From assembly GCA_016214385.1 (NCBI GenBank), contig JACROP010000108.1, positions 1-56,847 of the forward strand: DNA of 56,847 bases, written 5' to 3'. Origin of the DNA: Nitrospirota bacterium (GTDB lineage: Bacteria > Nitrospirota > Thermodesulfovibrionia > UBA6902 > JACROP01). Positions 19,310-55,240 of this stretch are shown in pieces. The notes under the pieces were generated by a model. That model searched no databases and was not told where the DNA came from. It saw only the letters and a program-made list of their open reading frames with translations. Every line of letters begins with the position of its first letter. Within the stretch, counting starts at the first letter, position 1. A program made the translations under genes and the position numbers.

Positions 19310-19329
19310 TTTTTAAATAGGGTGACACA

Positions 19330-20758: not shown

Positions 20759-20775
20759 TTAAAGACCTCCGTTAA

Positions 20776-33875: not shown

Positions 33876-33931
33876 CCCTTTTTAGCAATTTTTTGGGAGA
33901 AGAACCAAATTTAAGTTTAAGGAGGGCGTTT

Positions 33932-35113: not shown

Positions 35114-35136
35114 AAATCTTAAAGGAGGAATAATAA

Positions 35137-36207
35137 ATGTCATTACCACAGAGAAAAACAGATATAGGGCCGCCTCATTATAAGCAGTTTCTTCCACCTG
35201 TAATCCAGAAGAATTATGGCCAGTGGAAGTATCACGAAGTGCTGGACCCCGGAACAATGGTGCATGTGGCGGAAAGCGGTGATAAGATATACACCGTGAG
35301 AGTTGCATCGCCGAGGCTTTTAAGCACTGATACTATCCGTGAGATCAGCGATATTGCAGATAAATACTGCGAAGGCTATCTTCGCTTTACCAGCAGAAAC
35401 AACATAGAGTTTCTCGTATCAGATAAGAGTAAGGTTGAGCCTCTTAAAAAAGAACTCAAAGACAAAGGCTACACTGTTGGAGGTATAGGCCCGAGGGTGA
35501 GCAATGTTGTTCATACTCAGGGATGGATTCACTGTCACAGTGCCTGCACCGATGCCTCTGGTCTGGTAAAGGCCATGATGGATGAACTTTACGATTACTT
35601 TACTACAAAAGAGCTCCCTAACAAGGTGAGGCTGGCAGTGGCGTGCTGTGTTAATATGTGTGGAGCTGTTCATTGTTCAGACATAGCCATAGTCGCTGTT
35701 CACAGGAAAGTACCAACGATAGACCATGGAAGGTTAGCGAATGTGTGCGAAATCCCTACAACCATAGCGTCCTGCCCCACACATGCTATAAGCCCTGACC
35801 CTGCAAAGAAAAGTGTAAAGATTAATCCTGACAGGTGCATGTACTGCGGAAACTGCTTTACTGTCTGTCCGCCAATAGATATCCATGACCCTGAAAATGA
35901 TGGTGTTGCCATAGTGGTGGGTGGAAAGGTCGGCAGCCTGAGGAGCAATCCAAAATTCTCCAAGCTCGCAATTCCTTTCTTTTACAACGAACCTCCACGG
36001 TGGCCAAAGGTTGTTGCTGCTGTAAAGAACATCCTTGAAACTTATGCCAGGCATGCAAAGCAACATGAAAGGGTAGGCGAGTGGATAGAGAGAATTGGCT
36101 GGGAAAAGTTCTTCAAGCTTACAGGCATTGAGTTTACATTCCAGCATATTGACGATTTCAAATTTGCCCGTGAGACCTTCAGGACAGCGGCGACATTTAA
36201 ATGGTAA
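35137..36207 (+). CDS. dsrB: Dissimilatory sulfite reductase beta subunit
   Basis: '[13 protein letters not shown]', 'CHSACTD', '[13 protein letters not shown]' and 'CPTHAI...[12 protein letters not shown]'. Confidence 0.95.
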
Positions 36208-36216
36208 ACTATAGTA

Positions 36217-36257
36217 GAGGTTGAGGTTGAGAGATACTTAACCTTAACCTCAACCTC
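36217..36257 (+). repeat. Tandem-heptamer hairpin between dsrB and dsrD
   Basis: 'gaggttgaggtt' (36217-36228) pairs perfectly with 'aacctcaacctc' (36246-36257). It lies immediately before the dsrD RBS AAGGAGG. Confidence 0.7.
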
Positions 36258-36274
36258 AATAAGGAGGTGGAGGG

Positions 36275-36520
36275 ATGGAGAAGGAAGAGATAAAACAGAA
36301 GATTTATGAATTATTAGAAAAATCAAAGGGCAAGAAAAAACTCAAAGAGAAAGATGTGATTAAAGCCATATCCGAGGAGACAGGAGTTGATAAGGACACT
36401 GTAAAGAAGGCTCTAAGAGAGATGATAGATGTTGGAAAAGTGATGTATTCGTATTCTGGCGGTGCCAGCTCTGTGGAGATCCCGAGTGAAGAGTACCTCA
36501 AAGAAAAAGGCCTTCTCTGA
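36275..36520 (+). CDS. dsrD: DsrD
   Basis: 81 aa, K/E-rich winged-helix-like, with a 'YSYSGGASS' motif analogous to the DsrD 'YWSSGSTT' motif. It lies directly after dsrB. Confidence 0.8.
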   Translation: MEKEEIKQKIYELLEKSKGKKKLKEKDVIKAISEETGVDKDTVKKALREMIDVGKVMYSYSGGASSVEIPSEEYLKEKGLL

Positions 36521-36568
36521 AGAAGTGAGAAGTGAGAACTTAACTTCCCATTTTCTACTTCCCACTTT
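36521..36568 (+). repeat. Tandem-heptamer hairpin between dsrD and dsrN
   Basis: 'gaagtgagaagtgagaac' is opposed by 'cttcccattttctacttcccacttt'. It is an imperfect stem, and the one mismatch checked in the best-matching stretch is A·C on the plus strand. Confidence 0.6.
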
Positions 36569-36571
36569 CAT

Positions 36572-38155
36572 ATGCTTAATTATTCAATTCCGAGGGTAGT
36601 TGTAGCAGGCCTCAGTGGCGGATGTGGTAAGACCATCCTTTCCATTGCCCTGATAGCGGCGTGGAGAAAAAAAGGCTTTAAAGTAGTCCCATTTAAGAAG
36701 GGGCCAGATTATATCGATGCGGGCTGGTTGGCCTCAGCAGCAGGCCAGCCCTGTTATAATCTGGACCCTTTTTTAATTGGTAAAGAGCAGCTTCTTTGTT
36801 CATTTGTAGAACACGCTTATGGAGCTCGGATTGCTGTTATTGAGGGCAACAGGGGCCTTTATGATGGTTTTGATGCTGAGGGCACTTACAGCACAGCCGA
36901 ACTTGCCAAATTGCTTCAAACACCTGTTATCGTAGTCATGGATTGCACAAAGGTAACACGCACTGCTGCTGCTCTGGTCCTGGGGCTCCAGAAATTTGAT
37001 CCATCAGTAAAGATTAAAGGTGTAATCTTGAATCAGGTTGCAGGTAAGCGACATGAATCTATATTGCGTGCAACAATAAATAAATACTGTAATGTGCCTG
37101 TATTGGGGGCTGTCCCAAAGCTGAAAGAGGCGACCTTGCCTGAGAGACATATGGGCCTTACCCCTTATCAGGAACACCCTGAAGTTGAAAAGGCTATTTC
37201 CGCTATCTTAGAGATAGCGCAGAATTATCTTGATTTAGATGAGATATGGAAGATTGCTAATGGGGCAGTGCCGCTTAAGGCAGAGACAAGAGACAAGAGA
37301 CAAGAGACCAATTCAGTGACAAGAGACAAGGGACAAGAGACAAGTAAATATAATAACTCGTCACTCGTCACTCGTCTCTCGTCTCTTGAAAAGTCACTCG
37401 TCACTCGTCACTCGTCTCTGGAAAAGTCACTCGTCTCTGAGCCTGCCCTGAGCCTGTCGAAGGGCCACTCGTCACTAAGAATCGGCGTTATCAAAGATAC
37501 TGCTTTCCAGTTTTATTATCCTGAAAACTTTGAGGAACTCGAAAGGCGTGGTGTCAGGATAGTTGAGATGAGTGCCCTAACAGAGAAAGAGCTTCCTGAC
37601 ATCGATGCCCTTTACATCGGTGGTGGTTTCCCTGAAACCCATGCAATAACCATTGCAGAGAATACTAATTTTCCAAACTCCCTGCGACAGGCCATTGAAA
37701 ATGGGCTCCCTGTTTATGCTGAGTGTGGAGGCTTGATGTATCTGGGGGAAAGCCTTGTATTAGAAAATAAAACATATCCTATGGCCGGTGTGCTGCCAGT
37801 GGTTTTCGGTCTGGAAAAGAGGCCCCAGGCACATGGATATTCAATAATAGAGGTAGATATGCCCAATCCATATTTTAGGACAGGCACTATTTTAAAAGGC
37901 CATGAATTTCATTATTCGAGTATTTTAGAGTTCAAAGAAAAAAATGGGGTATATACTGCTTTTAAAATGAAACGTGGACTTGGGATAATAGATAAAAGGG
38001 ATGGGTTGTGCTACAGGAATGTCTTAGCTACATATACCCATGTTCACGCCCTTGGGACGCCTGAATGGGTAGAGGGTATTATCAGCAGCGCAATAATGTA
38101 TAGAAAGCAAAGGAGTTTAGACGGTGGAGATAAAATTACTGAATTAACTAACTGA
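36572..38155 (+). CDS. dsrN: DsrN (cobyrinate a,c-diamide synthase-like amidase)
   Basis: CbiA ATPase domain ('GLSGGCGKT') and GATase domain ('AECGGLMYL'), downstream of dsrABD. A ~65-aa repeat-derived insert lies in the interdomain linker. Confidence 0.88.
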   Translation: MLNYSIPRVVVAGLSGGCGKTILSIALIAAWRKKGFKVVPFKKGPDYIDAGWLASAAGQPCYNLDPFLIGKEQLLCSFVEHAYGARIAVIEGNRGLYDGFDAEGTYSTAELAKLLQTPVIVVMDCTKVTRTAAALVLGLQKFDPSVKIKGVILNQVAGKRHESILRATINKYCNVPVLGAVPKLKEATLPERHMGLTPYQEHPEVEKAISAILEIAQNYLDLDEIWKIANGAVPLKAETRDKRQETNSVTRDKGQETSKYNNSSLVTRLSSLEKSLVTRHSSLEKSLVSEPALSLSKGHSSLRIGVIKDTAFQFYYPENFEELERRGVRIVEMSALTEKELPDIDALYIGGGFPETHAITIAENTNFPNSLRQAIENGLPVYAECGGLMYLGESLVLENKTYPMAGVLPVVFGLEKRPQAHGYSIIEVDMPNPYFRTGTILKGHEFHYSSILEFKEKNGVYTAFKMKRGLGIIDKRDGLCYRNVLATYTHVHALGTPEWVEGIISSAIMYRKQRSLDGGDKITELTN

Positions 38156-38163
38156 GGATCTGC

Positions 38164-38835
38164 ATGACCTTAAGGGAAAAGGTGGCAACCATGCTTGACA
38201 ACAGCAGGTTTGAAGAACTGACTGATTTAGGGCATAGAAATAAGGGCGTTTTTAGACATCTTATAGCCCTTACCTATAATAAAGAGAGTGCCATCTGCTG
38301 GAGGGCGATTGAGGCAATAGGGAAAATAACAGGTGTAATATCACAGGAGCATCCAGAGGTTGTAAGAAACCTTATCCAGCGTCTGCTCTGGTCTATGCGC
38401 GAAGAATCAGGCGGTATCGGATGGAGTATGGCAGAGATACTCGGAGAGATAATCAGAAACAGCCCTGACATTTTTTCTGACATCCTACCTATCGTGGTCT
38501 CTTTCCATGAGGAAGAGATGTTCAGGGCGGGTGTATTGAGGGCTATAGGAAGAATCGGCAGTATAAGCCCTGCTCTGGTGAATGCAAATATTCCATTAGT
38601 TAGATTCTACCTTGATGACCATAATCCTGACGTAAGGGCATCAGCAGCATGGACACTTGGGCAACTTAAGGCTGATGAGGGGATAGATGAGCTTCAGCGG
38701 TTATTGAACGACTGCACTCCTGTGACAATTTATGACAATGGCGAGCTTTTTCAGATGACTGTCGGAGAAGTGGCCAGGAAGGCTATGGCTATGATAAAAA
38801 ATAATGGGGAAAATGAAAAGTTTGACAAATATTAA
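38164..38835 (+). CDS. HEAT-repeat protein
   Basis: 'DDHNPDVRASAAWTLGQLKADEGIDELQRLLND' is a HEAT/PBS-lyase-type repeat. It starts 8 nt after the dsrN stop. Confidence 0.65.
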   Translation: MTLREKVATMLDNSRFEELTDLGHRNKGVFRHLIALTYNKESAICWRAIEAIGKITGVISQEHPEVVRNLIQRLLWSMREESGGIGWSMAEILGEIIRNSPDIFSDILPIVVSFHEEEMFRAGVLRAIGRIGSISPALVNANIPLVRFYLDDHNPDVRASAAWTLGQLKADEGIDELQRLLNDCTPVTIYDNGELFQMTVGEVARKAMAMIKNNGENEKFDKY

Positions 38836-38857
38836 AAAACCTGTAATTATTTACTGT

Positions 38858-39409
38858 ATGGACCTGTTAGGCCTTATAAGGAGGCATGCACAGAAACGTG
38901 AGACGGGGATGCTCTCCGTTAAATTAGAGGGGCAGGAACATTTACTTAAAATATATCTAAATGATGGGGAAATTACATTTATAAGCCTTGGACATCTGAG
39001 GAACGAAGAATGTATTGAAAAGATTGGAAATACGACCTCTCTCGGATTTAACTTTATAGAAGGGATGAAACCCCCGAAGACTTCGCCGGTGCCTCTGACA
39101 GAAAAACTAATCGGTAAAGCGGATGTTGCCACCATTATGAAGGAGATAGTTGCCGGCTCTATGACTGTTTCTCCACAGAAAGTAAAGGCCCTTGAGGAAG
39201 ATTTTGTAGATACTATCGGCCCCATAGGCTCTATGCTTATAAATGACATTTATAAGGAAATCTCATACCATAACGGCAGCTCCATGTCAGGTGATGATTA
39301 CAATTATCTCATGGAATCCCTTATAAGAGAACTCCCTGAATCCAAAAAGGAGCAATTCAGGTCAAAATACCAGCAGGGAGGAAGGAAGAGTTCAGAGGAA
39401 AAGAGTTGA
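38858..39409 (+). CDS. PATAN/DUF4388-like small protein
   Basis: 'KRETGMLSVKLEGQEHLLKIYLNDGEITFIS...GFNFIEG' resembles the DUF4388 core. The start is ambiguous (38804, 38813 or 38858). Confidence 0.45.
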   Translation: MDLLGLIRRHAQKRETGMLSVKLEGQEHLLKIYLNDGEITFISLGHLRNEECIEKIGNTTSLGFNFIEGMKPPKTSPVPLTEKLIGKADVATIMKEIVAGSMTVSPQKVKALEEDFVDTIGPIGSMLINDIYKEISYHNGSSMSGDDYNYLMESLIRELPESKKEQFRSKYQQGGRKSSEEKS

Positions 39410-39510
39410 GGAGGAGAAAGTTTTAGAGGAGAAAACCGATAAAGATGTCCCATGGGGCTGATTTCAAAAGAGGATAATTTAAATAAAATATCAACAGGAG
39501 GGACTTATAG

Positions 39511-40398
39511 ATGCTTAAAAATCTCAGGTTAAGGGCAAGATTTACAGTAATACTGCTTATAGTCTTTGCAATATCTCTACCTATTATGACATTCAGCTCT
39601 TATTATATTCTTAAGGCGAATGCAATAAGGGAAATCCTTGAGGAGGCAAACATTTTTCTTGTTACTATGGAATCAGCGAGGGCATATGTAGGTAAGACCT
39701 TAAGACCAAAACTCTTCAAGGAATTACCGGGCAGGTTTATAGTTGAAGGCATGTCATCCACTTTTGTTGCTACAAATATTGCAAACAGGATGAACGAGAA
39801 ATTGCCGAACTATTACTTTAAGGAAGCAACCCTGAACCCCTTGAATCCTAAGAATAAGGTTGATGCCTTTGAAGAAGAAATGGTTAAAAAATTCCGTGAT
39901 GGAACACTTGAGAAGGAGTGGAGGGGTTTTAAAAGCACTCCTGATGGAGAGTTCTATGTGATAATGAGGCCTGTTGTGGTGAATGATTTTGACTGTCTGC
40001 GGTGCCATAGTAACCCTGATATTGCCCCACCTGAGCAAAGGGAGAAATACGGCACAACCAATGGATACGGCTGGAAAATGAATGAGATTGTTGCAGTCAA
40101 TACCATTATTGTCCCTGCGGAAGTGCCTATTAAGAATGCAAAAAAAGCCCTTATACTCTTCACATCGCTTTACGGAGGTTTCTTTTTGTTCCTCCTGATA
40201 ATAATAAATAGAGTGATAAAAGGCAGTATTATAAGTCCTATTGAGAGGTTTGTTATTGCTGCTGAGGAGATCAGCAGGGGCAGGATGGATAAGGAATTTG
40301 ACGTAAAAAGCAATGATGAGGTCAGGACACTTGCAGATGCCTTTACAAGACTGAAACTGAGTCTTGCGAAGGCAATGGACATCCTGAAGAAGAAATAG
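39511..40398 (+). CDS. Membrane sensor: periplasmic haem-c DUF3365 domain + HAMP, with no output domain
   Basis: TM1, 'KEATLNPLNPKNKVDAFEEEM' and 'CLRCHSNPD' (CxxCH), TM2, then HAMP 'ISPIERFVIAAEEISRGRMDKEFDVKSNDEVRTLADAF'. The ORF ends 20 aa later. Confidence 0.75.
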   Translation: MLKNLRLRARFTVILLIVFAISLPIMTFSSYYILKANAIREILEEANIFLVTMESARAYVGKTLRPKLFKELPGRFIVEGMSSTFVATNIANRMNEKLPNYYFKEATLNPLNPKNKVDAFEEEMVKKFRDGTLEKEWRGFKSTPDGEFYVIMRPVVVNDFDCLRCHSNPDIAPPEQREKYGTTNGYGWKMNEIVAVNTIIVPAEVPIKNAKKALILFTSLYGGFFLFLLIIINRVIKGSIISPIERFVIAAEEISRGRMDKEFDVKSNDEVRTLADAFTRLKLSLAKAMDILKKK

Positions 40399-40400
40399 CC

Positions 40401-41678
40401 ATGACAAGAGGAAGCGTGCTTGTTATAGATGATAGTTCTACTGTAAGGAAACTCGCAGAGGGCATCCTGACATCAGAGGGTTATACTGTTTATACAGCAG
40501 GCGACGGCAAGGAGGGGCTCACAATTGCAAAGGAAATTAAGCCTGCAGTTATCCTTGTGGATTTTATTATGCCGGGTATGAATGGTTATCAGCTCTGCAA
40601 GATGATAAGGTTTGACCCTGAACTGAAAAATACACCGCTCATCCTTATAAGCGCTAAGGGAGAGCAGGTTGGTAAAAAGTTCATGGAGGCATTCAAGATA
40701 AACGATTATTTTCAAAAGCCCTTTCAACCCGACGACCTTGTAGAAAAAATAGCCTCTGTCCTTGTTGAGGAAGAAGAGAAAGAAGAGGTGAAAAAAGAGC
40801 CTGTAAAGGTGGAGCCCCATATAGGGGCTTTGCCAGATGTAAGGGGAATCGAGAACTTAATGGATGGTATAATGAGGCGGTATTTCCTGAATGAGTTCCC
40901 ATTGCAACTAAACAACATACTGGTTGGTTCCCTTAGAAAATTCGGCCTGGTAAGGGATGAATCCCTCGTGCTTTCTGGTGACCTCTCTATTTTTCAATTG
41001 CCTGATGTCCTTCAATTTGTTGGTTCAAGTAAGCTAACAGGAAGACTCACGGCTTTCTCGGCTAAGTGTTCATCAGAGATTTATTTTGACAATGGCGATG
41101 TGGTGTGGGGCATTATGAGCAAAAGGGGATGGAGTGCAATTATGGGTGAGGACCTTGTGAAGGACAGGAGACTCTCAAGAAATGATGTTGACCGCGCCCT
41201 CGCAGTCTCAAAAAGAGATAGTATTCCGCTTGGAAGGGCACTTGTCCAGGAAGGTCTTTTATCAGAGCTGGAGTTAATGGAGAGGATGAAGAAGACAGTA
41301 GAGAATGTGGTTTATACAAGTATCAGAATTGAAAAGGGGAGGTTTTTCTTCGAGAGAATGCCTCTGCCTGACAGCCTTTCTGACATAACCTTCAGGATTG
41401 CAGTATCCACTCTAATCCTCGAAGGGGTAAGGCGTCTTGATGAGAGGCGTCTTGCAAGCCAGACGTTCAAAGAACCGGATGTTGTCTTTGTCAGGCTTAT
41501 TACAGATGCCGAAGAGATTGAAAACGTTACCCTCGATAAGAAGGAGATGAATATTTTCCTCCTCATAAATGGTAAAAGGACCCTTACTGAAATTATTCAG
41601 GAAAGTGGTCTTGATGAGGGAGAAGTAAAGAGAATTCTATATACTCTTACAAAAGTAGGGCTTGTAAAAAAGAAATAA
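40401..41678 (+). CDS. Response regulator: REC + PATAN (DUF4388) domain
   Basis: REC ('VLVIDDSS', 'ILVDFIMPGMNG', 'KPF'), an E/K-rich linker, then 'LSGDLSIFQLPDVLQFVGSSKLTGRLT...IYFDNGDVVWG...EKGRFFFE'. Confidence 0.75.
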   Translation: MTRGSVLVIDDSSTVRKLAEGILTSEGYTVYTAGDGKEGLTIAKEIKPAVILVDFIMPGMNGYQLCKMIRFDPELKNTPLILISAKGEQVGKKFMEAFKINDYFQKPFQPDDLVEKIASVLVEEEEKEEVKKEPVKVEPHIGALPDVRGIENLMDGIMRRYFLNEFPLQLNNILVGSLRKFGLVRDESLVLSGDLSIFQLPDVLQFVGSSKLTGRLTAFSAKCSSEIYFDNGDVVWGIMSKRGWSAIMGEDLVKDRRLSRNDVDRALAVSKRDSIPLGRALVQEGLLSELELMERMKKTVENVVYTSIRIEKGRFFFERMPLPDSLSDITFRIAVSTLILEGVRRLDERRLASQTFKEPDVVFVRLITDAEEIENVTLDKKEMNIFLLINGKRTLTEIIQESGLDEGEVKRILYTLTKVGLVKKK

Positions 41679-41689
41679 AGGAGGCGTTT

Positions 41690-42055
41690 ATGGCGAGGAT
41701 ACTCATCGCGGATGATAGTGCAACAGACCTGGAAGTTATAAAAGGGGCATTGAAGGATACCCCTCACGAGCTGGTGACAGCAATGGATGGCCTGGAAACA
41801 GAGGCAAAGGTCAAAAGCGAGCATATTGATCTTATAATCCTTGACGTGGTAATGCCCAAAAAGAGTGGTTTTCAGATTTGCAGGGACTTAAAAATGGATG
41901 AGAAATATAAGAATATTCCAATAATTATGCTTACATCGAAGACGCAGGAGGGTGACAGATTCTGGGGCCTCAAACAGGGTGCAGACGAATATCTGACTAA
42001 ACCCTTTGAACCAATAGACCTCCTCCTCGCTGTAAAGAAACACCTGAGTAAATGA
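41690..42055 (+). CDS. cheY: CheY-like single-domain response regulator
   Basis: 'ILIADDS', 'LIILDVVMPKKSG', 'TSK' and 'YLTKPF'. Confidence 0.85.
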   Translation: MARILIADDSATDLEVIKGALKDTPHELVTAMDGLETEAKVKSEHIDLIILDVVMPKKSGFQICRDLKMDEKYKNIPIIMLTSKTQEGDRFWGLKQGADEYLTKPFEPIDLLLAVKKHLSK

Positions 42056-42453
42056 ACGAACAGATACAGCAAGAGACTCCCGAGGAAAGATTACCGAAGA
42101 ATTACTGTGTTTTCCGTGTGGACAAAAAGGAGTTTACCCTGCTGCTGAGCGAGGTAAAGGAAATAGTTAAGATTCCTGAGATATTTCCCGTGCCTCTGGC
42201 CCCTGATTATGTAAGGGGGATTATCCAGTTGAGAGGAAGAATAATCCCTGTTGTGGATCTCTTACAGGTGTACGAGGCATATGATACAGGAGAGGTTAGG
42301 TCATCAACTGTAAAGGTGGTAATTGTGGTTGATGCAGGCAGGGGCCTCATAGGGTTTCTCTCAGAAGACCTTCCGAGCCTTGTTGATGAGATGAGCGGGG
42401 AAGGGATAGATATCGCTGAGTTTTTTGATGCCCTGAGGGTAAGGGAGACCTGA
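42052..42453 (+). CDS. cheW: CheW-like coupling protein
   Basis: 133 aa. 'VFRVDKKEFTLLLSEVKEIVKIPEIFPVPLAPDYVRGIIQLRGRIIPVVDL'. It has an ATGA overlap with cheY. Confidence 0.85.
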   Translation: MNEQIQQETPEERLPKNYCVFRVDKKEFTLLLSEVKEIVKIPEIFPVPLAPDYVRGIIQLRGRIIPVVDLLQVYEAYDTGEVRSSTVKVVIVVDAGRGLIGFLSEDLPSLVDEMSGEGIDIAEFFDALRVRET

Positions 42454-44702
42454 TGCATTTTGATAGTTCAAGACTCGTTGATTTTTTCCTTGCCGAGGCA
42501 TACGACCATATAAATATCCTCGAAAAGGGTATCTTGCAGCTCGAGGCAAATCCCCGGGATATAGCTCAGATAGAAGAGCTCTTCAGGTCAGCCCATACCA
42601 TAAAAGGGTCTGCTGCTCTGGTGAAACTCAATGGTATCAGTAATGCAGCTCACAGGATGGAGGATATACTTGAAGGTGTTATGGGGGAAAGGATACCTGT
42701 TACACCCCAGTGTATAGAAGTGCTCCTTTACATCCTCGACACAATAAAGGAACTTATCAGGGGTGTCGGCTCGGGCAAAGAAGAGCCCGCGTCTTTAGGA
42801 GAGAAAATAGATTACATGATCAAAACCAAGATACAGGAAGTCGAGAAACCCGAAGAAGAGAGACGTGAACTTGGCAGAAGAAAAGAAGACAAGGAGCTTG
42901 TTGAGCACAAGTCCGTCAGGGTTGATGTCAGTAGAGTTGAGGAGATGATGAATCTCGTAGGGGAGCTGACGATAATAAAAAACCATTTATTTAAGAACGT
43001 CAAGAAAACAGATAAGCTTACAGATGAGGTGTTTGCGACAGGTGTAAGACTTCTAAGGGAGTTAACAAGTTTCTCGGATAGATATGCGTATTCCCTCCCG
43101 GAGTCTGTAAAATATACAGACACCCTCCTTTCAGATTTCCAGGAGCTCGAGTTTGACAGATACGATGAGCTCAACCTGTTTTCGAGAAAACTCCAGGAGA
43201 TTACAAACGATATAAATGAGGCATTAAGGGAACTTGCTGCCACCTATGGAGACCTTGTGGCTTCTTTGAAAAATATAGATAAAGTTGTGGGTTTTCTGAA
43301 GGGAGAAGTTTCAGAGGTGAGGATGATTGAGATTGGTAAGCTCTTCCACAGGTTTACCCGTCCTGTGAGAGACATCGCTCTTGAATCTAATAAGAAGGTT
43401 GATTTTAATATTTCAGGCGGAGAGACCAAGGTTGACAAGCTGATCTTTGAAAAGCTCTTCGACCCCCTTCTGCACCTTGTCAGAAATGCCATTTATCATG
43501 GAATAGAACCTCCGCAGGAAAGGACAGAGGCAGGCAAAAAGGCTGAGGGAGATATTTCCCTTTCAGCGAGGAGGGAAGGTAACAACGTTGTTATCGAGCT
43601 AAGAGATGATGGAAGAGGTATAGATACTGAGAAGGTTCGCGAGGTTGCTGTTGAGAGGGGGATGTTCTCAGTTGATTATCCGCAATTAAGAAGACAAGAT
43701 CTTATAGATATAATATTTACACCTGGCTTTACCACAACGGAGACGACCAATATGGTATCCGGTAGAGGGATTGGACTTAATGTGGTGAGGGAATATATAT
43801 CTGCCCTCAACGGCCTTATTGAGGTGGATACAGAAAAGGGCGTTGGTACTACTTTCAGGCTGAAAGTACCGCTTTCTCTTATCATTGTTGATGTTGTGAG
43901 CTTTATGGCAGGGGGTATGGAATTTGTTGTGCCGGCAAGACTTGTAGAGGAAATCACTTACACAGGGGCGCATATGGACATCAACGAACCTGACTCTTTA
44001 AACTTTAGAGGGAGGAGAATCCCTGTTAAACTTCTGACAGATACCCTCGGTTTCAAGGACATTGCAACTGTTGGGAACAAACCTGTTCTTGTTGTGAATC
44101 TCGCGGGAAGGCTTGCAGGTATGATAGTTGATGAAATAGTGAGCCATGAGGAGACGGTTATAAAACCCCTCGGGAGGTTTCTTGAAGGCCTCACAATTTA
44201 CTCAGGCGCCACAATATCAGGCGATGGGAAAGTCAGGGTTGTTATAAATCCCACAAAACTCTTTGAGGAAAAAATTCCAGTCTCTGAGATCGGGGCGGTT
44301 ACAACTGCAGAGAAGGCTTATCAAGGCAGGAGAGTTCTGATTGTAGATGATTCTCTCAGTGTGAGAAAATATGTGAGCGGCTTCCTCGAGTCAAAGGACT
44401 TCAGGGTGTATACTGCCACTAACGGAATAGAAGCCTTAAAATTACTTGGCGAAAATGAGATCGACCTTATAATAACCGACCTTGAAATGCCGGTAATGCA
44501 TGGTTATGAGCTGATAAACGAGCTAAGAAAGGAAGAGAAATTTCAAAACATTCCGGTGGTAGTCCTGACTTCAAGGGGCAGCGAAAAACACAGGGAAAAA
44601 GCTCTTTCACTCGGTGCAAAGGATTATCTGGTAAAACCCTTTGACGAAGATACCCTGATAGAAGTTGTAAGAAGAAACCTGTCTGCCTCCTTCCTCACAT
44701 AA
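42453..44702 (+). CDS. cheA: CheA-type histidine kinase with C-terminal receiver (no recognisable P2)
   Basis: Hpt 'FRSAHTIKGSAA', N-box 'HLVRNAIYHGIE', 'DDGRGID', 'GRGIGLNVV', a P5 CheW-like domain and REC 'VLIVDDS...IITDLEMPVMHG...VKPF'. Confidence 0.9.
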   Translation: MHFDSSRLVDFFLAEAYDHINILEKGILQLEANPRDIAQIEELFRSAHTIKGSAALVKLNGISNAAHRMEDILEGVMGERIPVTPQCIEVLLYILDTIKELIRGVGSGKEEPASLGEKIDYMIKTKIQEVEKPEEERRELGRRKEDKELVEHKSVRVDVSRVEEMMNLVGELTIIKNHLFKNVKKTDKLTDEVFATGVRLLRELTSFSDRYAYSLPESVKYTDTLLSDFQELEFDRYDELNLFSRKLQEITNDINEALRELAATYGDLVASLKNIDKVVGFLKGEVSEVRMIEIGKLFHRFTRPVRDIALESNKKVDFNISGGETKVDKLIFEKLFDPLLHLVRNAIYHGIEPPQERTEAGKKAEGDISLSARREGNNVVIELRDDGRGIDTEKVREVAVERGMFSVDYPQLRRQDLIDIIFTPGFTTTETTNMVSGRGIGLNVVREYISALNGLIEVDTEKGVGTTFRLKVPLSLIIVDVVSFMAGGMEFVVPARLVEEITYTGAHMDINEPDSLNFRGRRIPVKLLTDTLGFKDIATVGNKPVLVVNLAGRLAGMIVDEIVSHEETVIKPLGRFLEGLTIYSGATISGDGKVRVVINPTKLFEEKIPVSEIGAVTTAEKAYQGRRVLIVDDSLSVRKYVSGFLESKDFRVYTATNGIEALKLLGENEIDLIITDLEMPVMHGYELINELRKEEKFQNIPVVVLTSRGSEKHREKALSLGAKDYLVKPFDEDTLIEVVRRNLSASFLT

Positions 44703-44729
44703 GATCCTTCGTTGCTTTGCTCCTCAGGA

Positions 44730-44776
44730 TAACTAAAACCAAATGTTAAACGATATATTTGGTTTTAGTTATTTTA
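44730..44776. terminator. Bidirectional hairpin terminator between cheA and the MCP gene
   Basis: A perfect 15-bp stem, 'taactaaaaccaaat' (44730-44744) with 'atttggttttagtta' (44757-44771), and a 12-nt loop. A T-run follows on the plus strand. Confidence 0.6.
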
Positions 44777-46531
44777 GAAGCTTACCTTTCCAGATATCTC
44801 TGGTTGTCCGGGTAGTTTAAATGTTCCAACTGCATCGAGGAGCCCTTTTGATGTCGCTGAGAGGCTCTCAGAAATGGACGAAGAGTCTTTTACCATTTTC
44901 AACATCTGCATGGATATCCTGTTCACCTCTTCCATTGCAATAACAACTTTAGCGGAAAGTCCCTTCTGATTGGTAGCAGTATCGTATATTTCCGAAATTA
45001 TGCGACTTGTATTGTTAATAGCGTTTTTAATATCTTCAAATGCATCACCTGTATCTTTTGCTATATTAGTTCCATGCTCCACGAGCCTTGTTTCTTCCTC
45101 AAGGGTAGTGGTTACCTCACCTGCAACCAATTGGATGGCATTTATCACTTCACCTATCTGTTTTGTAGCTGATGCTGACCTGTCTGCAAGCTCCCTTATC
45201 TGTTCCGCGATAATAACAAATCCCTTGCCCTGTTCTCCGGCCCTTGCGGCTTCGATGGATGCATTCAGGGCGAGAAGGTTTGTCTGAAATGCAACATCAC
45301 TGATCAGTTTTGATATGGTCTCTATCTCCATTAATCTCTCTGAAAGGTTTTTCATCTTTTTATTGATAGATTGAACTGTTACTCTTATAATCTGTATCCC
45401 ATCAATACTTTCTGTAACGAGCTTGTCACCCTTTTCTGCAGCCCCTGAAGTTTCTGAAGATATATCCTGGGCAGTCTTTGTCTTTTCAGATATATCGATG
45501 ATTGAGTTTATTGTTTCATCAACGTTTCCTGTAGCCTTTTTTACTTCTGCCATCTGTGTCTCTGCGCCTTTACCCATCTCTCGTAGCATTAAAAGCATTT
45601 TCTGGCTTTCCTGGCCAACTTTAGTAGTGGACATTCTTACATTGTTAAGTAATTCAGACAGTCCTTCGATCATGAGGTTGTATGCGTCAGCAATAGAGCC
45701 GAAGAGGTCTGCTGTCACTGGCGCTTTCTGAGAAAGGTCGCCTTCTGAGGCAGAACTGATAATGTTTAACATATATACAAGGCCTTCCTGGGTCTTTTTT
45801 CTTTCCGCTCCTGTCTGGGTCTGAGCCCTCAGCGTTTCTATGCTGTTATTTATAGCCGTGGCAAGTGCTCCAAACTCATCCTTAGATCTAACAGTTGCCG
45901 TAACGCTGAAGTCTCCTTTACTGAGAGCCCTCGTAGCCCCTATAAGTTCCACAAGTGGTCTGGTAATTTTTCCGGATACGAGGATTGACAGAGGTATTAT
46001 TATGGAGAAAATTATTGCCATAGCTATAAGAAAGTCCGTAATCTCTGCGTTTAAGGCATCCAGGAGGGTAAATTCCTTTATTCCCAGACGAATTATTCGA
46101 CCTTTACCTGCAGGCGCTGCAATGTCCAGTATGAGGTTACCTCTGGGGTCTTCCCATTTATTTGTAGATATTCCTTCTGTTGGCGCCTTCAATGTCTCTA
46201 AAACCTTTGGCACATCTTTTGGAAAAGTATGGGCTAAAACACTGCCTTTGTCGTCTTGAATAACGCAGTACGCAAAGTCTTTATCCATTGCCAGTGTTTT
46301 CTTCACGATTTCGGTTAGAGGCAGTTCAGCACTGCTTGCAAGGGCGGATGTGAGGTTTGAACTGGTGGTTGAGACAACGATAGTCCCTTTTTTAAGGTTT
46401 GTCTCTTGTGTATTTTTCTGTATTTTAAGGAGATGATAAGCAAATACTAAGATGCTTGCTAAGGAGATTACTACAATAAAGATTAATAAAATTTTTGATC
46501 TCACACCCAACCCTGTTTTAAGTTCTGCCAT
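44774..46531 (-). CDS. Methyl-accepting chemotaxis protein (2 TM, periplasmic sensor, HAMP)
   Basis: 'FQTNLLALNASIEAARAGEQGKGFVIIAEQIRELADRS' signalling hairpin, a HAMP domain after TM2, and a ~130-aa periplasmic domain. Confidence 0.9.
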   Translation of the reverse strand: MAELKTGLGVRSKILLIFIVVISLASILVFAYHLLKIQKNTQETNLKKGTIVVSTTSSNLTSALASSAELPLTEIVKKTLAMDKDFAYCVIQDDKGSVLAHTFPKDVPKVLETLKAPTEGISTNKWEDPRGNLILDIAAPAGKGRIIRLGIKEFTLLDALNAEITDFLIAMAIIFSIIIPLSILVSGKITRPLVELIGATRALSKGDFSVTATVRSKDEFGALATAINNSIETLRAQTQTGAERKKTQEGLVYMLNIISSASEGDLSQKAPVTADLFGSIADAYNLMIEGLSELLNNVRMSTTKVGQESQKMLLMLREMGKGAETQMAEVKKATGNVDETINSIIDISEKTKTAQDISSETSGAAEKGDKLVTESIDGIQIIRVTVQSINKKMKNLSERLMEIETISKLISDVAFQTNLLALNASIEAARAGEQGKGFVIIAEQIRELADRSASATKQIGEVINAIQLVAGEVTTTLEEETRLVEHGTNIAKDTGDAFEDIKNAINNTSRIISEIYDTATNQKGLSAKVVIAMEEVNRISMQMLKMVKDSSSISESLSATSKGLLDAVGTFKLPGQPEISGKVSF

Positions 46532-46541
46532 AATATCCCCC

Positions 46542-46559
46542 TTTTTTTTTTTTTTTTTT
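46542..46559. repeat. T18 homopolymer (A18 on the MCP sense strand)
   Basis: 18 consecutive T. On the minus strand the sequence reads A18-GGGGGATATT-ATG(MCP). Confidence 0.9.
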
Positions 46560-46791
46560 ATATACTATCATTTTATTAATATTCACTTTATAAGGTAGTC
46601 TAAATTGAGATTCAAGTCAAGTAATTCGTTAGAATTAAAAGACTTTGACCAGAATAATGCTGAGTTTATAAGCAATCGTGATTTATAGATAAGTTTTTTT
46701 TATTTGACCAGCAGGCTACCGCTATATTAGGCTTATATGTTTAATTATTTCTTAAAATATTTTATAATAATATCCCAATAACATCAAGATT

Positions 46792-46886: not shown

Positions 46887-47222
46887 ATGGGGACAATTGA
46901 GTTTCAAAGCAAGAGTTATGAGGTTGATGAGGATGGTTATCTTCAGAATCTGGATGACTGGAGTCCTGAGTTAGCCAATTTTATTGCAGAAAAAGAAGGA
47001 ATCCAGATGAGCGAGGCACACTGGGAGGTTGTCAATTTCCTCAGGGACTATTACCAGAAATACCAGATTGCTCCAATGATAAAGATCCTTGTCAAAGAAA
47101 TAGCTAAGGTTATGGGGCCCGAAAAAGGCAACACAAAATACCTTTATGAGCTTTACCCTGGTGGCCCTGCAAAGCAGGCATGTAAGATAGCCGGACTTCC
47201 GAAACCAACAGGTTGCGTGTAA
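46887..47222 (+). CDS. dsrC: DsrC (TusE/DsrC family)
   Basis: 111 aa. 'VDEDGYLQNLDDW', 'HWEVVNFLRDYY' and a C-terminal arm 'CKIAGLPKPTGCV' with both conserved Cys. Confidence 0.95.
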   Translation: MGTIEFQSKSYEVDEDGYLQNLDDWSPELANFIAEKEGIQMSEAHWEVVNFLRDYYQKYQIAPMIKILVKEIAKVMGPEKGNTKYLYELYPGGPAKQACKIAGLPKPTGCV

Positions 47223-47400: not shown

Positions 47401-47961
47401 ATGAAGCTCTCGACCCTCCTGTCAGCAAAGAGATCTGTTATTTTGGAAAAGTGGTTTGCTGAGATACTGGATACTTATCCATCTGCCACCTCAAGTTTTT
47501 TAAAGAAGCAAAAGGACCCATTCACTAATCCAGTGGGGCGAAATATCCTCCAGGGGATAGAGGGTCTTTTTGATGAGCTCCTCCATGGGGTGAGGCCTGA
47601 CAAGGCTTCTCCATTTCTTGATAATATTATCAGAATCAGAGCGATTCAGGATTTTACGCCCTCGCAGGCCATATCCTTTATTTTCTTTCTAAAAAAAGTG
47701 ATAAGAGAAGAGTTGAAAAATGATCCTGCCCTGAATTCAATTCAGGATAATTCAGGACTCGAAAACGGAATTGCTGAGGAGTTGCTGACACTTGAGGATA
47801 AAATAGATGACCTGGCCCTTCTGGCCTTTGATATTTATATGAAATGCCGGGAGAAGATTTATGATCTCAAGGCAAATGAGGTGAAAAATATGACCTTCGG
47901 GCTATTGAAACGAGCGAAGCTGATACGTGATTCTGAATTTAATTCAGGACAGAGACAGTAA
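47401..47961 (+). CDS. dsrT: DsrT-like protein (RsbRD N-terminal-like domain)
   Basis: 'ILEKWFAEILDTYPS...KDPFTNPVG' matches my recollection of DsrT. It lies immediately upstream of dsrM. Confidence 0.6.
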   Translation: MKLSTLLSAKRSVILEKWFAEILDTYPSATSSFLKKQKDPFTNPVGRNILQGIEGLFDELLHGVRPDKASPFLDNIIRIRAIQDFTPSQAISFIFFLKKVIREELKNDPALNSIQDNSGLENGIAEELLTLEDKIDDLALLAFDIYMKCREKIYDLKANEVKNMTFGLLKRAKLIRDSEFNSGQRQ

Positions 47962-47997: not shown

Positions 47998-48990
47998 ATG
48001 GGAGCCATATTCTCTTTCTTTGCAGTTATAATACTTGTCCTGCTTGCTTTTATTGGGGTAGGGGCAGCAAATTTACACTTTCTCTTTGGTGTTATTATCC
48101 CATACGCAGCTTTTGTAACATTCACCCTTGGGATTATTTATCGTGTCATTAAATGGGCGCGTTCCCCTGTCCCTTTCCGTATACCGACAACAGGTGGGCA
48201 GCAGAAATCTCTCCCCTGGATCAAGCAGAATAAACTTGATAATCCCTCCAGCACCCTTGGTGTTGTAGGAAGGATGGCTCTTGAAGTGCTTTTTTTCCGT
48301 TCTCTATTCAGAAACACAAAAACAGAATTGCGGGAAGGGCCAAAGCTCGCTCATGGCTCTGACAAGTGGCTCTGGTTAGCAGGCATAGCATTTCACTGGT
48401 CTTTTCTAATAATCTTACTCAGACACATCAGACTTTTTGCCGAACCTTCGCCTTTTTATTTGTATGTCCTTGAAAGCCTTGATGGTTTTTTGCAAATTGG
48501 CGCACCACGCCTATTTATGACAGGCATAATCCTTTTGCTGGCTGTAACCTATCTCTTCCTCAGAAGGCTATATATTCCTCAAGTCCGTTATATCTCCCTT
48601 GCTTCTGATTATTTCCCCCTCTTTTTGATTTTAGGTATAGCTGCAACAGGCATCCTTATGCGGTATTTCTTCAAAGTGAATGTGGTCGGTGTGAAAGAAC
48701 TGACCATGGGATTGGTTAATTTTAATCCGAAGATTCCGCAGGGAATCGATGTTATATTTTATATCCATCTTTTCCTTATCAGCGTCCTGTTTGCCTACTT
48801 CCCATTCAGCAAGCTGGTGCACATGGCTGGAGTCTTCCTCAGTCCTACGAGGAACCTCGCAAATAACAATCGCATAGTTAGACATATTAATCCATGGAAT
48901 TATCCTGTTAAGGTTCATACATATGAGGAGTACGAGGATGAATTCAGAGGAAAAATGAAACAATCTGGGATACCAGTAGAGAAGGAGTGA
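47998..48990 (+). CDS. dsrM: DsrM (NarI-like dihaem b membrane subunit)
   Basis: Polytopic membrane protein with conserved His in its helices. It is the first gene of the dsrMKJOP order. Confidence 0.85.
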   Translation: MGAIFSFFAVIILVLLAFIGVGAANLHFLFGVIIPYAAFVTFTLGIIYRVIKWARSPVPFRIPTTGGQQKSLPWIKQNKLDNPSSTLGVVGRMALEVLFFRSLFRNTKTELREGPKLAHGSDKWLWLAGIAFHWSFLIILLRHIRLFAEPSPFYLYVLESLDGFLQIGAPRLFMTGIILLLAVTYLFLRRLYIPQVRYISLASDYFPLFLILGIAATGILMRYFFKVNVVGVKELTMGLVNFNPKIPQGIDVIFYIHLFLISVLFAYFPFSKLVHMAGVFLSPTRNLANNNRIVRHINPWNYPVKVHTYEEYEDEFRGKMKQSGIPVEKE

Positions 48991-48994
48991 GAAT

Positions 48995-50620
48995 ATGGCA
49001 ACGAAGGCAAAACCACCAAAACCAGAAGATCTGTCAAAGATAGACTATAAACCTCCTAAGACAAAGTGGATGGATACGCCTGCTGAATTCAAGCCTGGCA
49101 TGTATTGCTATGGTACGAGACCTAAATATCTCGAGGCAGTTGACTTTCCAAACCCAAGGGAGTGGTCGTCTTCTGAGGAGGACTGGAAGCTACCTGAAAA
49201 CTGGAAAGAGATAGTGTTAGAAGGGATTAAAGAACGGCTGAGCAAGTACCGCACCTTTCATATATTTATGGATATCTGTGTGAGGTGTGGTGCCTGTGCT
49301 GACAAGTGCCATTTCTTCCTCGGCTCAGGAGACCCAAAGAATATGCCTGTTTTGAGGGCTGAACTTATAAGGTCGGTGTATAGGAAGTATTTTACAGGAT
49401 CAGGAAAAATTCTGGGTAAGCTTGCTGGCGCAAGAGAACTCACGTATGATGTGCTAAAGGAGTGGTGGTATTATTTCTACCAGTGCACCGAATGTCGGCG
49501 CTGCTCTCTTTTCTGCCCGTACGGTATTGATCAGGCTGAAATCACGATAATTGGCAGGGAACTTCTCAATCTACTGGGTCTGAATACAGACTGGATTGCT
49601 GGCCCTGTGGCGAATTGTTATAAAAAGGGTAATCACCTCGGCCTTGAGCCACATACACTCAAAAGTAACATAGAATTTATGATAGATGATATAGAAACCA
49701 TTACAGGGATCAGGATTGAGCCAACCTTTAACAGAAAGGGTGCTGAGATTCTCTTTGTTACGCCTTCCGGAGACCTCTTCGGTGACCCTGGCATTTACAC
49801 AGCAATGGGCTATCTCATGCTTTTCCATGAACTTGGACTTGACTACACCTGGAGCACATATGCTTCTGAGGGCGGTAATTTCGGCTTTTTCACATCAAAT
49901 GAGATGGCGAAAAGACTTCATTACAAGATATATGCTGAGGCAAAGCGGTTGAAGGTAAAGTGGATACTTGGAGGAGAATGTGGCCACATGTGGAGGCTTG
50001 TTCACCAATACCTGGACACATGGCACGGACCTGCAGATTTTCTTGAGGTACCTGTTTCACCAGTAACCGGCACAAAATTTGAGAATGCAAAATCCGCAAG
50101 GATGGTTCACGTTGCTGAATTTGCTGCTGACCTCATCAGGCATGGCAAACTAAAACTTGACCCGAGACGAAACGACCATCTAAAAGTGACCTGGCATGAT
50201 TCCTGTAACACCGCCAGAGGTATGGGAATTCTTGAAGAGCCCCGATATATCATCAAGAATGTATGCAACTATTTCTATGAGATGCCAGACAATACCATCA
50301 GGGAGAGAACCCTCTGCTGTGGTAGTGGTTCAGGCTTAAATGCAGGAGAAAATATGGAATTAAGGATGAGGGGAGGATTCCCCAGAGCAAATGCTGTGAA
50401 GTATGTTCGTGAAAGATACGGGGTGAATATACTGGCGAATATGTGTGCCATTGATAGGGCTGCCCTTCCACCGCTGATGGATTACTGGGTTCCTGGTGTG
50501 CGTGTGGCGGGCCTTCACGAGCTGGTGGGGAATGCATTGGTAATGAAGGGAGAAAAAGAGAGGACAACCGACTTACGCCTTGAACCCCTTCCAGGGAAGG
50601 AGGCAAAGGAAGATGTATAA
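48995..50620 (+). CDS. dsrK: DsrK (HdrD-like FeS/CCG-domain subunit)
   Basis: 'CVRCGACADKC', 'CTECRRCSLFCP' and CCG-type motifs ('HDSCNTARG', 'CCGSGSG'). Confidence 0.9.
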   Translation: MATKAKPPKPEDLSKIDYKPPKTKWMDTPAEFKPGMYCYGTRPKYLEAVDFPNPREWSSSEEDWKLPENWKEIVLEGIKERLSKYRTFHIFMDICVRCGACADKCHFFLGSGDPKNMPVLRAELIRSVYRKYFTGSGKILGKLAGARELTYDVLKEWWYYFYQCTECRRCSLFCPYGIDQAEITIIGRELLNLLGLNTDWIAGPVANCYKKGNHLGLEPHTLKSNIEFMIDDIETITGIRIEPTFNRKGAEILFVTPSGDLFGDPGIYTAMGYLMLFHELGLDYTWSTYASEGGNFGFFTSNEMAKRLHYKIYAEAKRLKVKWILGGECGHMWRLVHQYLDTWHGPADFLEVPVSPVTGTKFENAKSARMVHVAEFAADLIRHGKLKLDPRRNDHLKVTWHDSCNTARGMGILEEPRYIIKNVCNYFYEMPDNTIRERTLCCGSGSGLNAGENMELRMRGGFPRANAVKYVRERYGVNILANMCAIDRAALPPLMDYWVPGVRVAGLHELVGNALVMKGEKERTTDLRLEPLPGKEAKEDV

Positions 50621-51011
50621 TGGCGGAAAGATTATCATTGGACTTATTATCTTTTTAGCCTTTGTAGCATTTCCTTTATACTACAATATTGGGAAGGTTA
50701 GTGTTAAACCAGAACCAAAGCTTGATACCTCTGTCATCCAGCAATTGAAGGAAAAGAAGTGTGTTGAGCCAAAAGCCTATATGAAGGCTGAGCACATGAA
50801 GTTGTTGAATGAATGGAGAGATTCAGCTGTGCGGGATGGCAATAGGCTCTATATTAACAGTGAAGGGAAGCAGTTCACAATAAGCCTCCAGAATACATGC
50901 ATGAAATGCCATTCAAATAAGAAGAAATTTTGTGATGAATGCCATAATTACGCAGCAGTAAAACCTTACTGCTGGGATTGCCATATTGCGCCAAAGGAGA
51001 AGGAGATATGA
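50613..51011 (+). CDS. dsrJ: DsrJ (trihaem cytochrome c)
   Basis: The start at 50613 follows GAAGGAGG and overlaps dsrK by 8 nt. There is a signal anchor and three CxxCH motifs (CMKCH, CDECH, CWDCH). Confidence 0.88.
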   Translation: MYNGGKIIIGLIIFLAFVAFPLYYNIGKVSVKPEPKLDTSVIQQLKEKKCVEPKAYMKAEHMKLLNEWRDSAVRDGNRLYINSEGKQFTISLQNTCMKCHSNKKKFCDECHNYAAVKPYCWDCHIAPKEKEI

Positions 51012-51808: not shown

Positions 51809-51820
51809 GAGGTAGCAATA

Positions 51821-54743: not shown

Positions 54744-54753
54744 TTTATCCCTC

Positions 54754-55056: not shown

Positions 55057-55240
55057 TTTTTTCACCTCCATGGGAATATTATTGATGAACAGCACATAAG
55101 TTTATACACTCATGCCATGTTTTGTCAAGGAAACCAAGGCATAATAAGAGAAATTGACACCACTTCCCCTCTGTTGTTTTTGTAAATTAAGAGTTAATAT
55201 AGTTAACAGCCGATGGTCAGAAGTTAGGCAGGGAGGCAGA

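Follow-up and report, generated by a model that had tools for sequence, protein, structure and literature searches.

The Tax1 system of Synechocystis comprises a PATAN response regulator (PixG), a CheY (PixH), a CheW, a methyl-accepting chemotaxis protein (MCP) and PixL, a hybrid CheA with a receiver (REC) domain. Its PATAN domain binds PilB1/PilC, PixH and the PixL receiver modulate the output, and adaptation enzymes are absent (PMC11181946; bioRxiv 2021.06.11.447907). Systems of the type IV pilus (Tfp) class, to which Pil-Chp of Pseudomonas aeruginosa belongs, have been reported only from Gamma- and Betaproteobacteria and from Cyanobacteria; the receptor PilJ is of the 40-heptad (40H) class. 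On the sensory side, the DUF3365/Tll0287 domain has been reclassified as sCache_haem, and a protein consisting of a transmembrane helix (TM), sCache_haem, a second TM and HAMP, without output domain, was found to bind nitric oxide (NO) selectively and with high affinity, forming no stable oxy complex (PMC12889525, a 2026 preprint). This study deals with a chemotaxis-like (Che-like) cassette that combines parts of these kinds and is located within the dsr locus of contig JACROP010000108.1. The window, i.e. the whole 56.8-kb stretch analyzed, is an entire contig of a metagenome-assembled genome (MAG) labelled 'Nitrospirae bacterium'. On the evidence of its sequence, the cassette is a PATAN-type chemotaxis-like system, distinguished by a reversed REC-PATAN domain order and by an accessory input made of a HAMP stub and a small PATAN-like protein. 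We consider it likely that this self-contained 7.7-kb unit landed in the spacer between a HEAT-repeat gene and the dsrC promoter, in one lineage as far as public data reach, and that it functions as a Tax/Pix-type relay.

The dsr locus and its Che-like cassette

Gene and domain calls were based on an open reading frame (ORF) map and on Pfam scans. Both agree, coordinates included, with a preliminary description of the window that placed a Che-like/PATAN module between dsrABDN and dsrC-dsrT-dsrMKJOP. The upstream flank consists of dsrA, dsrB, dsrD and dsrN (33893-38155; dsrA at 33893/33932-35113). The last enzyme gene of this dsrABDN unit is dsrN (36572-38155, plus strand), which encodes a CobB-like sirohaem amidase with Pfam domains GATase_3 and CbiA (450 bits to the NCBIfam cobB subfamily). 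The downstream block is opened by dsrC (46887-47222, plus strand; Pfam DsrC, 157 bits) and continues with dsrT (RsbRD_N; 47401-47961) and dsrMKJOP (47998-52993). The interval between the two is one native dsr-locus gene, encoding a HEAT-repeat protein of the DVU0298 family (38164-38835, plus strand), and one self-contained cassette (38858-46531). The preliminary description had assigned only signalling proteins to this interval, which is correct from the small PATAN-like gene to the MCP gene, but not for the HEAT gene.

Six cassette genes are located on the plus strand. The first encodes a small PATAN-like protein of the DUF8082 family (sPATAN, 183 aa; 38858-39409), and is followed by a Tll0287/DUF3365-HAMP stub (39511-40398; Pfam Tll0287-like 131 bits with a cutoff of 24.1, HAMP 35.6 bits) and by a REC-PATAN(-winged helix) response regulator (40401-41678; Response_reg and DUF4388). 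Next come a single-domain CheY (41690-42055; Response_reg, 85.7 bits), a CheW adaptor (42052-42453; 69.9 bits) and a hybrid CheA-REC (42453-44702), in which Pfam recognizes an Hpt domain, a dimerisation domain, HATPase, a CheW-like domain and a C-terminal REC. The seventh gene, on the minus strand (44774-46531), encodes a transmembrane MCP with a periplasmic domain, HAMP (53.6 bits) and a 40-heptad signalling domain (MCPsignal, 126.6 bits). The domains of a core Che-like pathway, those of MCP, CheW, CheA and CheY, thus all score above the Pfam gathering thresholds. As had been described, cheB, cheR, flagellar and pilus genes are absent from the ORFs checked across the window, and an Rfam scan of the window returned no RNA family at gathering score.

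Comparison with characterised systems

Judged by its parts list, the cassette most resembles Tax1 of Synechocystis sp. PCC 6803 (PixG-PixH-PixI-PixJ-PixL). Both have the same parts, including a PATAN domain in the first response regulator of the operon, a second, single-domain CheY and a CheA with a C-terminal REC, and neither has CheB or CheR. Nitrospirota-type relatives of the cassette (L010-L028 in our numbering of sampled loci) also share the order regulator, CheY, CheW, MCP, CheA. In contrast, the regulator of the window has the order REC-PATAN, whereas PatA-type regulators are PATAN-REC. Furthermore, the MCP gene of the window is convergent at the end of the cassette, a sensor-HAMP stub and sPATAN are present in addition, and a periplasmic haem-c Cache (another Cache in related cassettes) takes the place of a cyanobacteriochrome as input. 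The host also differs, being an anaerobic sulfate/sulfite reducer. Cyanobacterial loci fetched by genome scan turned out to encode plain receiver proteins and not tax operons, and gave no direct comparison.

With regard to Pil-Chp, the cassette shares the 40H MCP (as in PilJ), the hybrid CheA with C-terminal REC and two response regulators, presumably antagonistic; pilus ATPase genes are also found beside some homologous cassettes. It differs from Pil-Chp in lacking PilK/ChpB (CheR/CheB), in having one Hpt and one CheW, and in carrying a PATAN regulator in place of PilG. A 40H receptor is not exclusive to the Tfp class. The label of an 'alternative cellular function' (ACF) system, which had been proposed for this pathway, appears less apt than that of a Tax/Pix-like, possibly pilus-directed system.

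The stub has the same architecture as the sCache_haem-HAMP sensor of Pseudomonas azotoformans (PMC12889525): TM, haem-c Cache with a CXXCH motif, TM, HAMP and no output. Unlike that sensor, for which the published work names no downstream partner, the gene of the window is embedded in a Che-like cassette with sPATAN, suggesting that such a partner exists. The cassette family therefore places the haem-c Cache-HAMP NO sensors described in 2026 in a genomic context, and hence offers a candidate for the pathway that they feed.

Probable insertion between the HEAT gene and dsrC

The dsr locus of the window is of the kind found in Thermodesulfovibrionales (dsrABD-N-HEAT-dsrC-dsrT-dsrMKJOP), and matches L170 in gene content, gene order, the HEAT gene, the element upstream of dsrC and the downstream dsrEFH-like genes, which have the opposite orientation. 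It differs from these loci in two respects: only the window carries the 7.7-kb Che-like insert, and it lacks a Cys-rich ORF that is common after HEAT.

In a dsrN-anchored survey, 80 loci on metagenome contigs were annotated with the proteins of the window, and 58 of them, in which the contig continues for 1.5 kb or more beyond dsrN, were regarded as informative. Eighteen of these read dsrN-HEAT-dsrC(-dsrT-dsrMKJOP), 15 read dsrN-dsrC, and dsrC was located elsewhere in 23. Together with L170 and L171, this places HEAT after dsrN in about 20 related loci. The cassette was found in 0/58, with no Che gene between dsrN and dsrC. The preliminary description knew of no other chemosensory array embedded in a dsr operon, and the arrangement is indeed unique among everything sampled. 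Because dsrN-HEAT-dsrC synteny is common among dsrN loci, the HEAT gene is a native gene of the dsr locus, and its membership of the signalling module was ruled out. Likewise, the approximately 33 cassette loci have no HEAT homolog within 10 kb. The protein belongs over its full length to NCBIfam NF045662 ('DVU0298 family'; 186.9 bits, cutoff 75), with positions 2-212 of the 213-position profile aligned, and its homologs are plentiful in Nitrospirota.

The closest relative, GCA_021789595.1, carries the two units separately. One contig reads tusA-dsrA-B-D-N-HEAT, a 272-nt spacer, dsrC-dsrT-dsrMKJOP, two ferredoxin genes and then tusA/dsrE/dsrE/dsrH on the minus strand, which is the layout of the window minus the cassette. 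Identities to the window are 63% for DsrN, 50% for HEAT, 86% for DsrC and 85% for DsrK, the best seen for several markers. Another contig of the same genome carries the closest cassette (Tll0287-HAMP 63%, CheY 67%, CheA 53%), beside acetyl-CoA synthase genes. The preliminary description had stated that its idea would fail if close relatives had dsrN directly abutting dsrC and the module elsewhere, next to motility genes; GCA_021789595.1, in which the module is separated from the dsr genes, speaks against the idea on this count.

The right boundary is indicated by a promoter-like element upstream of dsrC (46676-46745, plus strand), composed of an A/T tract, TTGACC and a TATTAG-type -10. All 20 loci examined, the window among them, have it 116-200 nt ahead of dsrC, with the consensus GATAAG, a T-rich tract, TTGACC, about 15 nt and TATTA[CG]. 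It probably represents either the promoter of dsrC together with an UP element or a site for a regulator. As it is shared with relatives, the insertion point lies between the HEAT stop (38835) and approximately 46670. The region upstream of the MCP gene (46532-46675, minus strand) forms the right end of the inserted segment and has no counterpart in the HEAT-dsrC spacers of relatives. Given that dsrC has its own conserved promoter-like element, it constitutes a separate transcription unit. The locus therefore comprises at least two units, with the cassette between them rather than inside one operon, which corrects the single-operon picture drawn previously.

No signs of a mobile element were detected: flanking direct or inverted repeats and tRNA genes are absent, and the annotated ORFs include no recombinase. 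The composition of the cassette is mildly atypical (delta* 45 versus 33 +- 8 in windows of the same size, approximately 1.5 sd), and its GC content equals that of the rest of the contig. On these features, the insertion looks like an old event or an intragenomic rearrangement, not a recent island. Two of the closest DsrAB relatives show that the dsrN-HEAT-dsrC interval is prone to rearrangement. In L109 (DsrB 83%), the dsrN-HEAT interval (11475-21159) contains two small ORFs, NrfD-like and 4Fe-4S proteins, a dCache_1-PAS histidine kinase, a sigma54-dependent response regulator and a multihaem cytochrome c. In L097 (DsrB 82%), pilM, pilN, pilO/T2SSM-like, T2SSB-like and secretin genes follow immediately after HEAT (8417-12809). 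The parallel between these pilus genes and the pilus-type Che cassette that follows HEAT in the window may be due to chance, or may be the trace of a former linkage.

The cassette family in other genomes

The distribution of the cassette was surveyed by scanning one genome per species with the family alignment, complemented by six Pfam-annotated contexts and by tblastn annotation. Homologs of REC-PATAN were found chiefly in Thermodesulfovibrionales and other Nitrospirota and in Desulfuromonadales, with a best non-self identity of 50%. The core REC-PATAN/CheY/CheW/CheA recurs in about 33 loci, usually with an MCP, and CheY is 55-70% identical among the homologs. No dsr gene was found within +-10 kb in any of the approximately 33 loci, including the sampled Desulfuromonadales loci. 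To our knowledge, Desulfuromonadales lack dsr. The six Pfam-annotated loci contain no cheB or cheR, as had been described for the window, and no flagellar genes.

The neighbours of the cassette are diverse: acetyl-CoA synthase genes in L001, an ABC transporter and a cytochrome in L004, and purine biosynthesis in L166. Pilus genes are found in some instances, namely PilY1 and minor pilins (L002/L003) and PilB/MshE-type ATPases directly beside the MCP (L030, L032). In L031 and L035, which served as a control for spacing, the first cassette gene either overlaps the adjacent accC-thiE or lies 2 nt from it. As unrelated genes are abutted just as tightly there, close upstream spacing is a habit of the cassette and no sign of a tie to dsr. 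The named Geobacter che clusters (Tran et al. 2008) include no clear counterpart of the cassette, and a literature search for Che genes within dsr loci returned no relevant report.

A periplasmic binding protein (PBP_like_2/SBP_bac_11, PstS/oxyanion type) is encoded beside the cassette MCP in several homologous loci (L002, 16755-17753; L165, 16649-17518; L167, 6000-6872). This gene is not present in the window, and its position suggests that those variants sense a ligand indirectly.

The analysis thus defines a conserved, uncharacterised family of PATAN-type Che-like cassettes in Nitrospirota and Desulfuromonadales, with a swappable sensor-HAMP stub and sPATAN as input.

Junctions and candidate promoters

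The spacing values reported in the preliminary description are exact: 8 nt from dsrN to HEAT, 2 nt before REC-PATAN, and overlaps of 4 nt for cheY/cheW and 1 nt for cheW/cheA. The gap between HEAT and sPATAN is 22 nt. No terminator-like structure was detected from dsrN through cheA, including the HEAT/sPATAN and sPATAN/Tll0287 junctions, so that, as had been noted, no hairpin precedes the end of cheA. The only strong plus-strand hairpin lies between the convergent cheA and MCP stops (44726-44775). It contains a 16-bp perfect inverted repeat (44729-44744/44757-44772) with a dG of -27.4 kcal/mol and a z of -5.9 on the plus strand, and of -21.3 and -4.3 on the minus strand, and it is predicted to be a probable bidirectional terminator. 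Since no terminator separates HEAT from the cassette and the gap is short, read-through from the dsr promoter is possible and may contribute to expression of the cassette. A promoter-like site, TTGACA-17-AATTAT (38822-38850), is located immediately upstream of sPATAN.

The left junction is not an assembly artefact, because an independent Logan assembly (SRR12113407) spans the 3' part of dsrN, HEAT, sPATAN and onwards into cheA. It matches window positions 37510-44671 with 99.73% identity over 7162 bp, with 19 SNPs and no gaps.

At the other end, a T18 run (46542-46559) is located a short distance upstream of the MCP start; on the MCP coding strand, it is a poly-A tract ahead of a GGGGG ribosome-binding site. 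It is the only such homopolymer in the window and occurred in 0 of 100 shuffles. Such a tract could be prone to slippage and thereby affect MCP expression.

Input components

The start of sPATAN was set at 38858 by alignment with 10 homologs. The start at 38804 given previously, which overlaps HEAT, was dropped after this alignment. The DUF4388 match of sPATAN is weak (E=6e-3, below the Pfam cutoff), and the identical gene in L168 is annotated as PF26309 (DUF8082). Homologs of sPATAN are always located upstream of a sensor-HAMP stub or of REC-PATAN. In L168, an independent population sample, a SNP at approximately 1897 (window approximately 39407) changes TGA to CGA, which removes the sPATAN stop and adds 11 residues.

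The stub consists of a TM, an sCache_haem (Tll0287/DUF3365) domain, a second TM and HAMP, without output domain. A CLRCH haem-c motif is located between the two hydrophobic helices, i.e. the CXXCH motif of an sCache_haem protein (PF11845, 131 bits) lies in the extracytoplasmic domain. The stub is thus a putative periplasmic haem-c sensor of a gas or of redox state. The slot that it occupies is swappable. Tll0287 haem-Cache stubs are present in the window and in L001, L004, L005, L008, L012, L013 and L165, and a dCache_3-HAMP stub, also without output domain, is located between sPATAN and REC-PATAN in L031 (8860-9990) and L035 (8857-9987). A HAMP-terminated stub paired with a DUF8082 protein therefore seems, from these gene arrangements, to be a conserved and swappable input of the cassette. 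The Tll0287 domain and the MCP of the cassette itself form a single protein in L166 and L032, which ties the haem sensor to the cassette pathway. From HAMP to the C-terminus, the MCP of the window shares 45% identity with the L032 receptor, whose periplasmic domain is 30% identical to the stub of the window.

The heptad class of the MCP, which the preliminary description had proposed to determine, follows from alignment. The MCP aligns with PcaY (6S18) without gaps and has two symmetric 14-residue insertions relative to Tsr. Given that we take Tsr to be 36H and PcaY to be 40H, the MCP of the window belongs to the 40H class.

Phosphorelay and output

All three receivers have the catalytic Asp and Lys, and D10, D11, D54 and K106 of REC-PATAN are invariant across the family. 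In CheA, the residues around H48 (AHTIKGS) resemble, by reading, an Hpt phospho-His site. REC-PATAN comprises a REC domain (residues 6-117) and a DUF4388/PatA_N domain (residues 192-349; 75 bits with a cutoff of 25). A fold search with the full-length protein returned only receiver-domain matches, and residues 185-425 were therefore modelled separately. The resulting AF2 model (pLDDT, the per-residue model confidence, of 86) exhibits a beta-rich core, a helical insertion and a C-terminal winged helix. Over 51-52 aa, the helical insertion resembles in fold the N-terminal GSPII/MshEN domains of two pilus ATPases, MshE and PilF, with 29-31% identity and a probability of 0.92-0.99. This insertion (approximately residues 260-307) also resembles the c-di-GMP-binding MshEN/GSPII motif, LG..LV..GLL....L, of which, by reading, the first Arg and the last Gln are not conserved; it may bind c-di-GMP or imitate the N-terminus of the ATPases. 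The best structural matches of the winged helix are the protein-interaction winged helices of GATOR1/SEA complexes. More than 1300 protein clusters (E <= 1e-10) contain PATAN and winged helix as a single unit that aligns over its whole length; they include stand-alone forms, tandem arrays, FHA fusions and TPR/DnaJ fusions. A dedicated DNA-binding output is disfavoured, because this unit recurs in many architectures that are not transcription factors.

By analogy, we infer the following phosphotransfer scheme. The 40H MCP and the accessory periplasmic haem-c Cache-HAMP stub, paired with sPATAN, would sense a periplasmic signal, most likely NO or another haem ligand or redox state. The receptors would be coupled via CheW to the hybrid CheA-REC, which would phosphorylate CheY and REC-PATAN, the latter being the probable main output. 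The PATAN-winged-helix unit would then alter a protein-protein interaction, most plausibly one with the extension motor of the type IV pilus. CheY and the REC domain of CheA could act as antagonist or phosphate sink, replacing methylation-based adaptation. By comparison with described systems, the input of the cassette is probably NO or redox, and its output probably a protein interaction made by PATAN, for which the motor of the type IV pilus is a plausible partner. The pilus output is inferred from analogy, from three pilus-adjacent loci of about 33 and from the local fold match.

Several observations weigh against a lineage-specific insertion of a Tax/Pix-type, pilus-directed relay. No relative of more than 90% identity beyond the same population is present in public data, so that fixation of the insertion across the clade cannot be shown. 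The missing terminator and the narrow HEAT-sPATAN gap fit real co-transcription with dsr, and the signalling genes of L109 and the pilus genes of L097, both downstream of dsrN, could hint at a non-random association. As for the relay itself, the winged helix could still bind DNA, the REC-PATAN order reverses that of characterised PatA-type regulators, and the pilus link consists of analogy and a small share of the cassette loci, with no pilus genes in the window.

Alternative explanations

According to the first alternative, the cassette was recruited into the dsrABDN-HEAT unit, senses redox state, NO, nitrite or sulfur species in the periplasm, and tunes behaviour or physiology tied to sulfite reduction. 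The uninterrupted, tightly spaced run from dsrN to cheA is consistent with this, as are the periplasmic haem-c sensor of the NO-binding type, the stability of the arrangement across two population samples, and the presence of other signalling genes in the same interval of L109, a close DsrAB relative. However, synteny between cassette and dsr is not kept in any of the 58 dsrN loci or of the approximately 33 cassette loci, and the closest relative, GCA_021789595.1, separates the two. The cassette is equally tight against the unrelated accC-thiE, and the promoter-like site upstream of sPATAN would perhaps make read-through unnecessary. The functional tie to Dsr implied by the preliminary description has thus no comparative support, with some 33 other cassette loci lacking dsr within 10 kb, and we regard such coupling as rather unlikely. 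Nothing in the locus indicates that the cassette serves Dsr; coupling is conceivable only through read-through transcription.

A more specific form of this idea, in which a PATAN-type cassette with a periplasmic haem-c sensor was captured in this lineage downstream of dsrABDN-HEAT, is driven by the dsr promoter, wires a Che relay to sulfite reduction and feeds back on pilus behaviour while sulfate is respired or, via the PATAN-winged-helix regulator, on dsrC/dsr expression, is unlikely. Its weaker version is more likely: the cassette family would represent a pilus-directed (Tfp-like) class outside the known phyla, in which HAMP-only stubs signal through an sPATAN adaptor. Were the placement functional, a sensory phosphorelay would for the first time be linked to core sulfite-reduction genes, and dsr regulation or the behaviour of sulfate reducers would become open to direct testing; the comparative evidence makes this improbable.

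Ordinary flagellar chemotaxis, with CheY-P acting on the flagellar switch and with cheB/cheR and motility genes elsewhere in the genome, would be consistent with the canonical single-domain CheY, CheW, CheA and transmembrane 40H MCP, and the view is limited to one contig of the genome. This is nevertheless quite improbable, given the absence of CheB, CheR and flagellar genes near the six annotated homologous cassettes and the combination of a hybrid CheA-REC with a PATAN regulator, which is that of pilus-directed Tax systems. The motility genes that do occur next to a cassette are pilus genes.

A direct path from Che to transcription, in which the winged helix of REC-PATAN binds DNA and controls the dsrC/dsrT-MKJOP or dsrAB promoters, appears very improbable. 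Its C-terminal winged-helix fold, the Pfam HTH_9, IclR and TrmB matches at residues 386-424, and the position of the cassette next to the conserved dsrC promoter would fit it. However, the winged helix is an integral part of the widespread PATAN unit, its structural matches are to winged helices for protein interaction, the regulator is also present where the locus or the genome has no dsr, and the domain is, by reading of its sequence, not notably basic.

A chimeric contig produced by assembly or binning, conceivable because the window is a MAG contig, is hardly credible, as the Logan assembly spans the junction (the left one only) and the composition is only mildly atypical with unchanged GC.

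Native dsr-locus genes and minor features

A small Cys-rich ORF (117-128 aa; CPFC...GGxCxCGAVYVYD..GHN.G[DE]AYVD) follows HEAT in many relatives (L090, 10897-11598; L091; L099-L111; and others). In Dissulfurispira (Dissulfurispira thermophila P0152), the Cys-rich protein and HEAT form a single protein, as an N-terminal fusion. No significant tblastn match to the Cys-rich ORF was found in the window, and L170 also lacks the ORF at that position. The HEAT and Cys-rich proteins look like partner proteins of the dsr locus. They are recognized here as conserved, unstudied dsr-locus genes, in addition to the strongly conserved dsrC promoter element.

The following observations concern the rest of the window. 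A GAF-GGDEF diguanylate cyclase gene (31559-32980, minus strand) is located divergently upstream of dsrA, and a PilZ protein is encoded near the L165 cassette; from these two genes, a c-di-GMP connection is possible. Downstream of dsrMKJOP, DsrE/DsrE/DsrH-like genes are present (53974-55095, minus strand) in a locus that contains dsrD and is of the reductive type, and the same set, together with TusA, is found in L170. Finally, an ECF sigma factor with a zf-HC2 anti-sigma factor (3322-4496, minus strand) and a nucleotidyltransferase/HepT-like toxin-antitoxin pair (18463-19309, plus strand) are both ordinary and bear no relation to the cassette.

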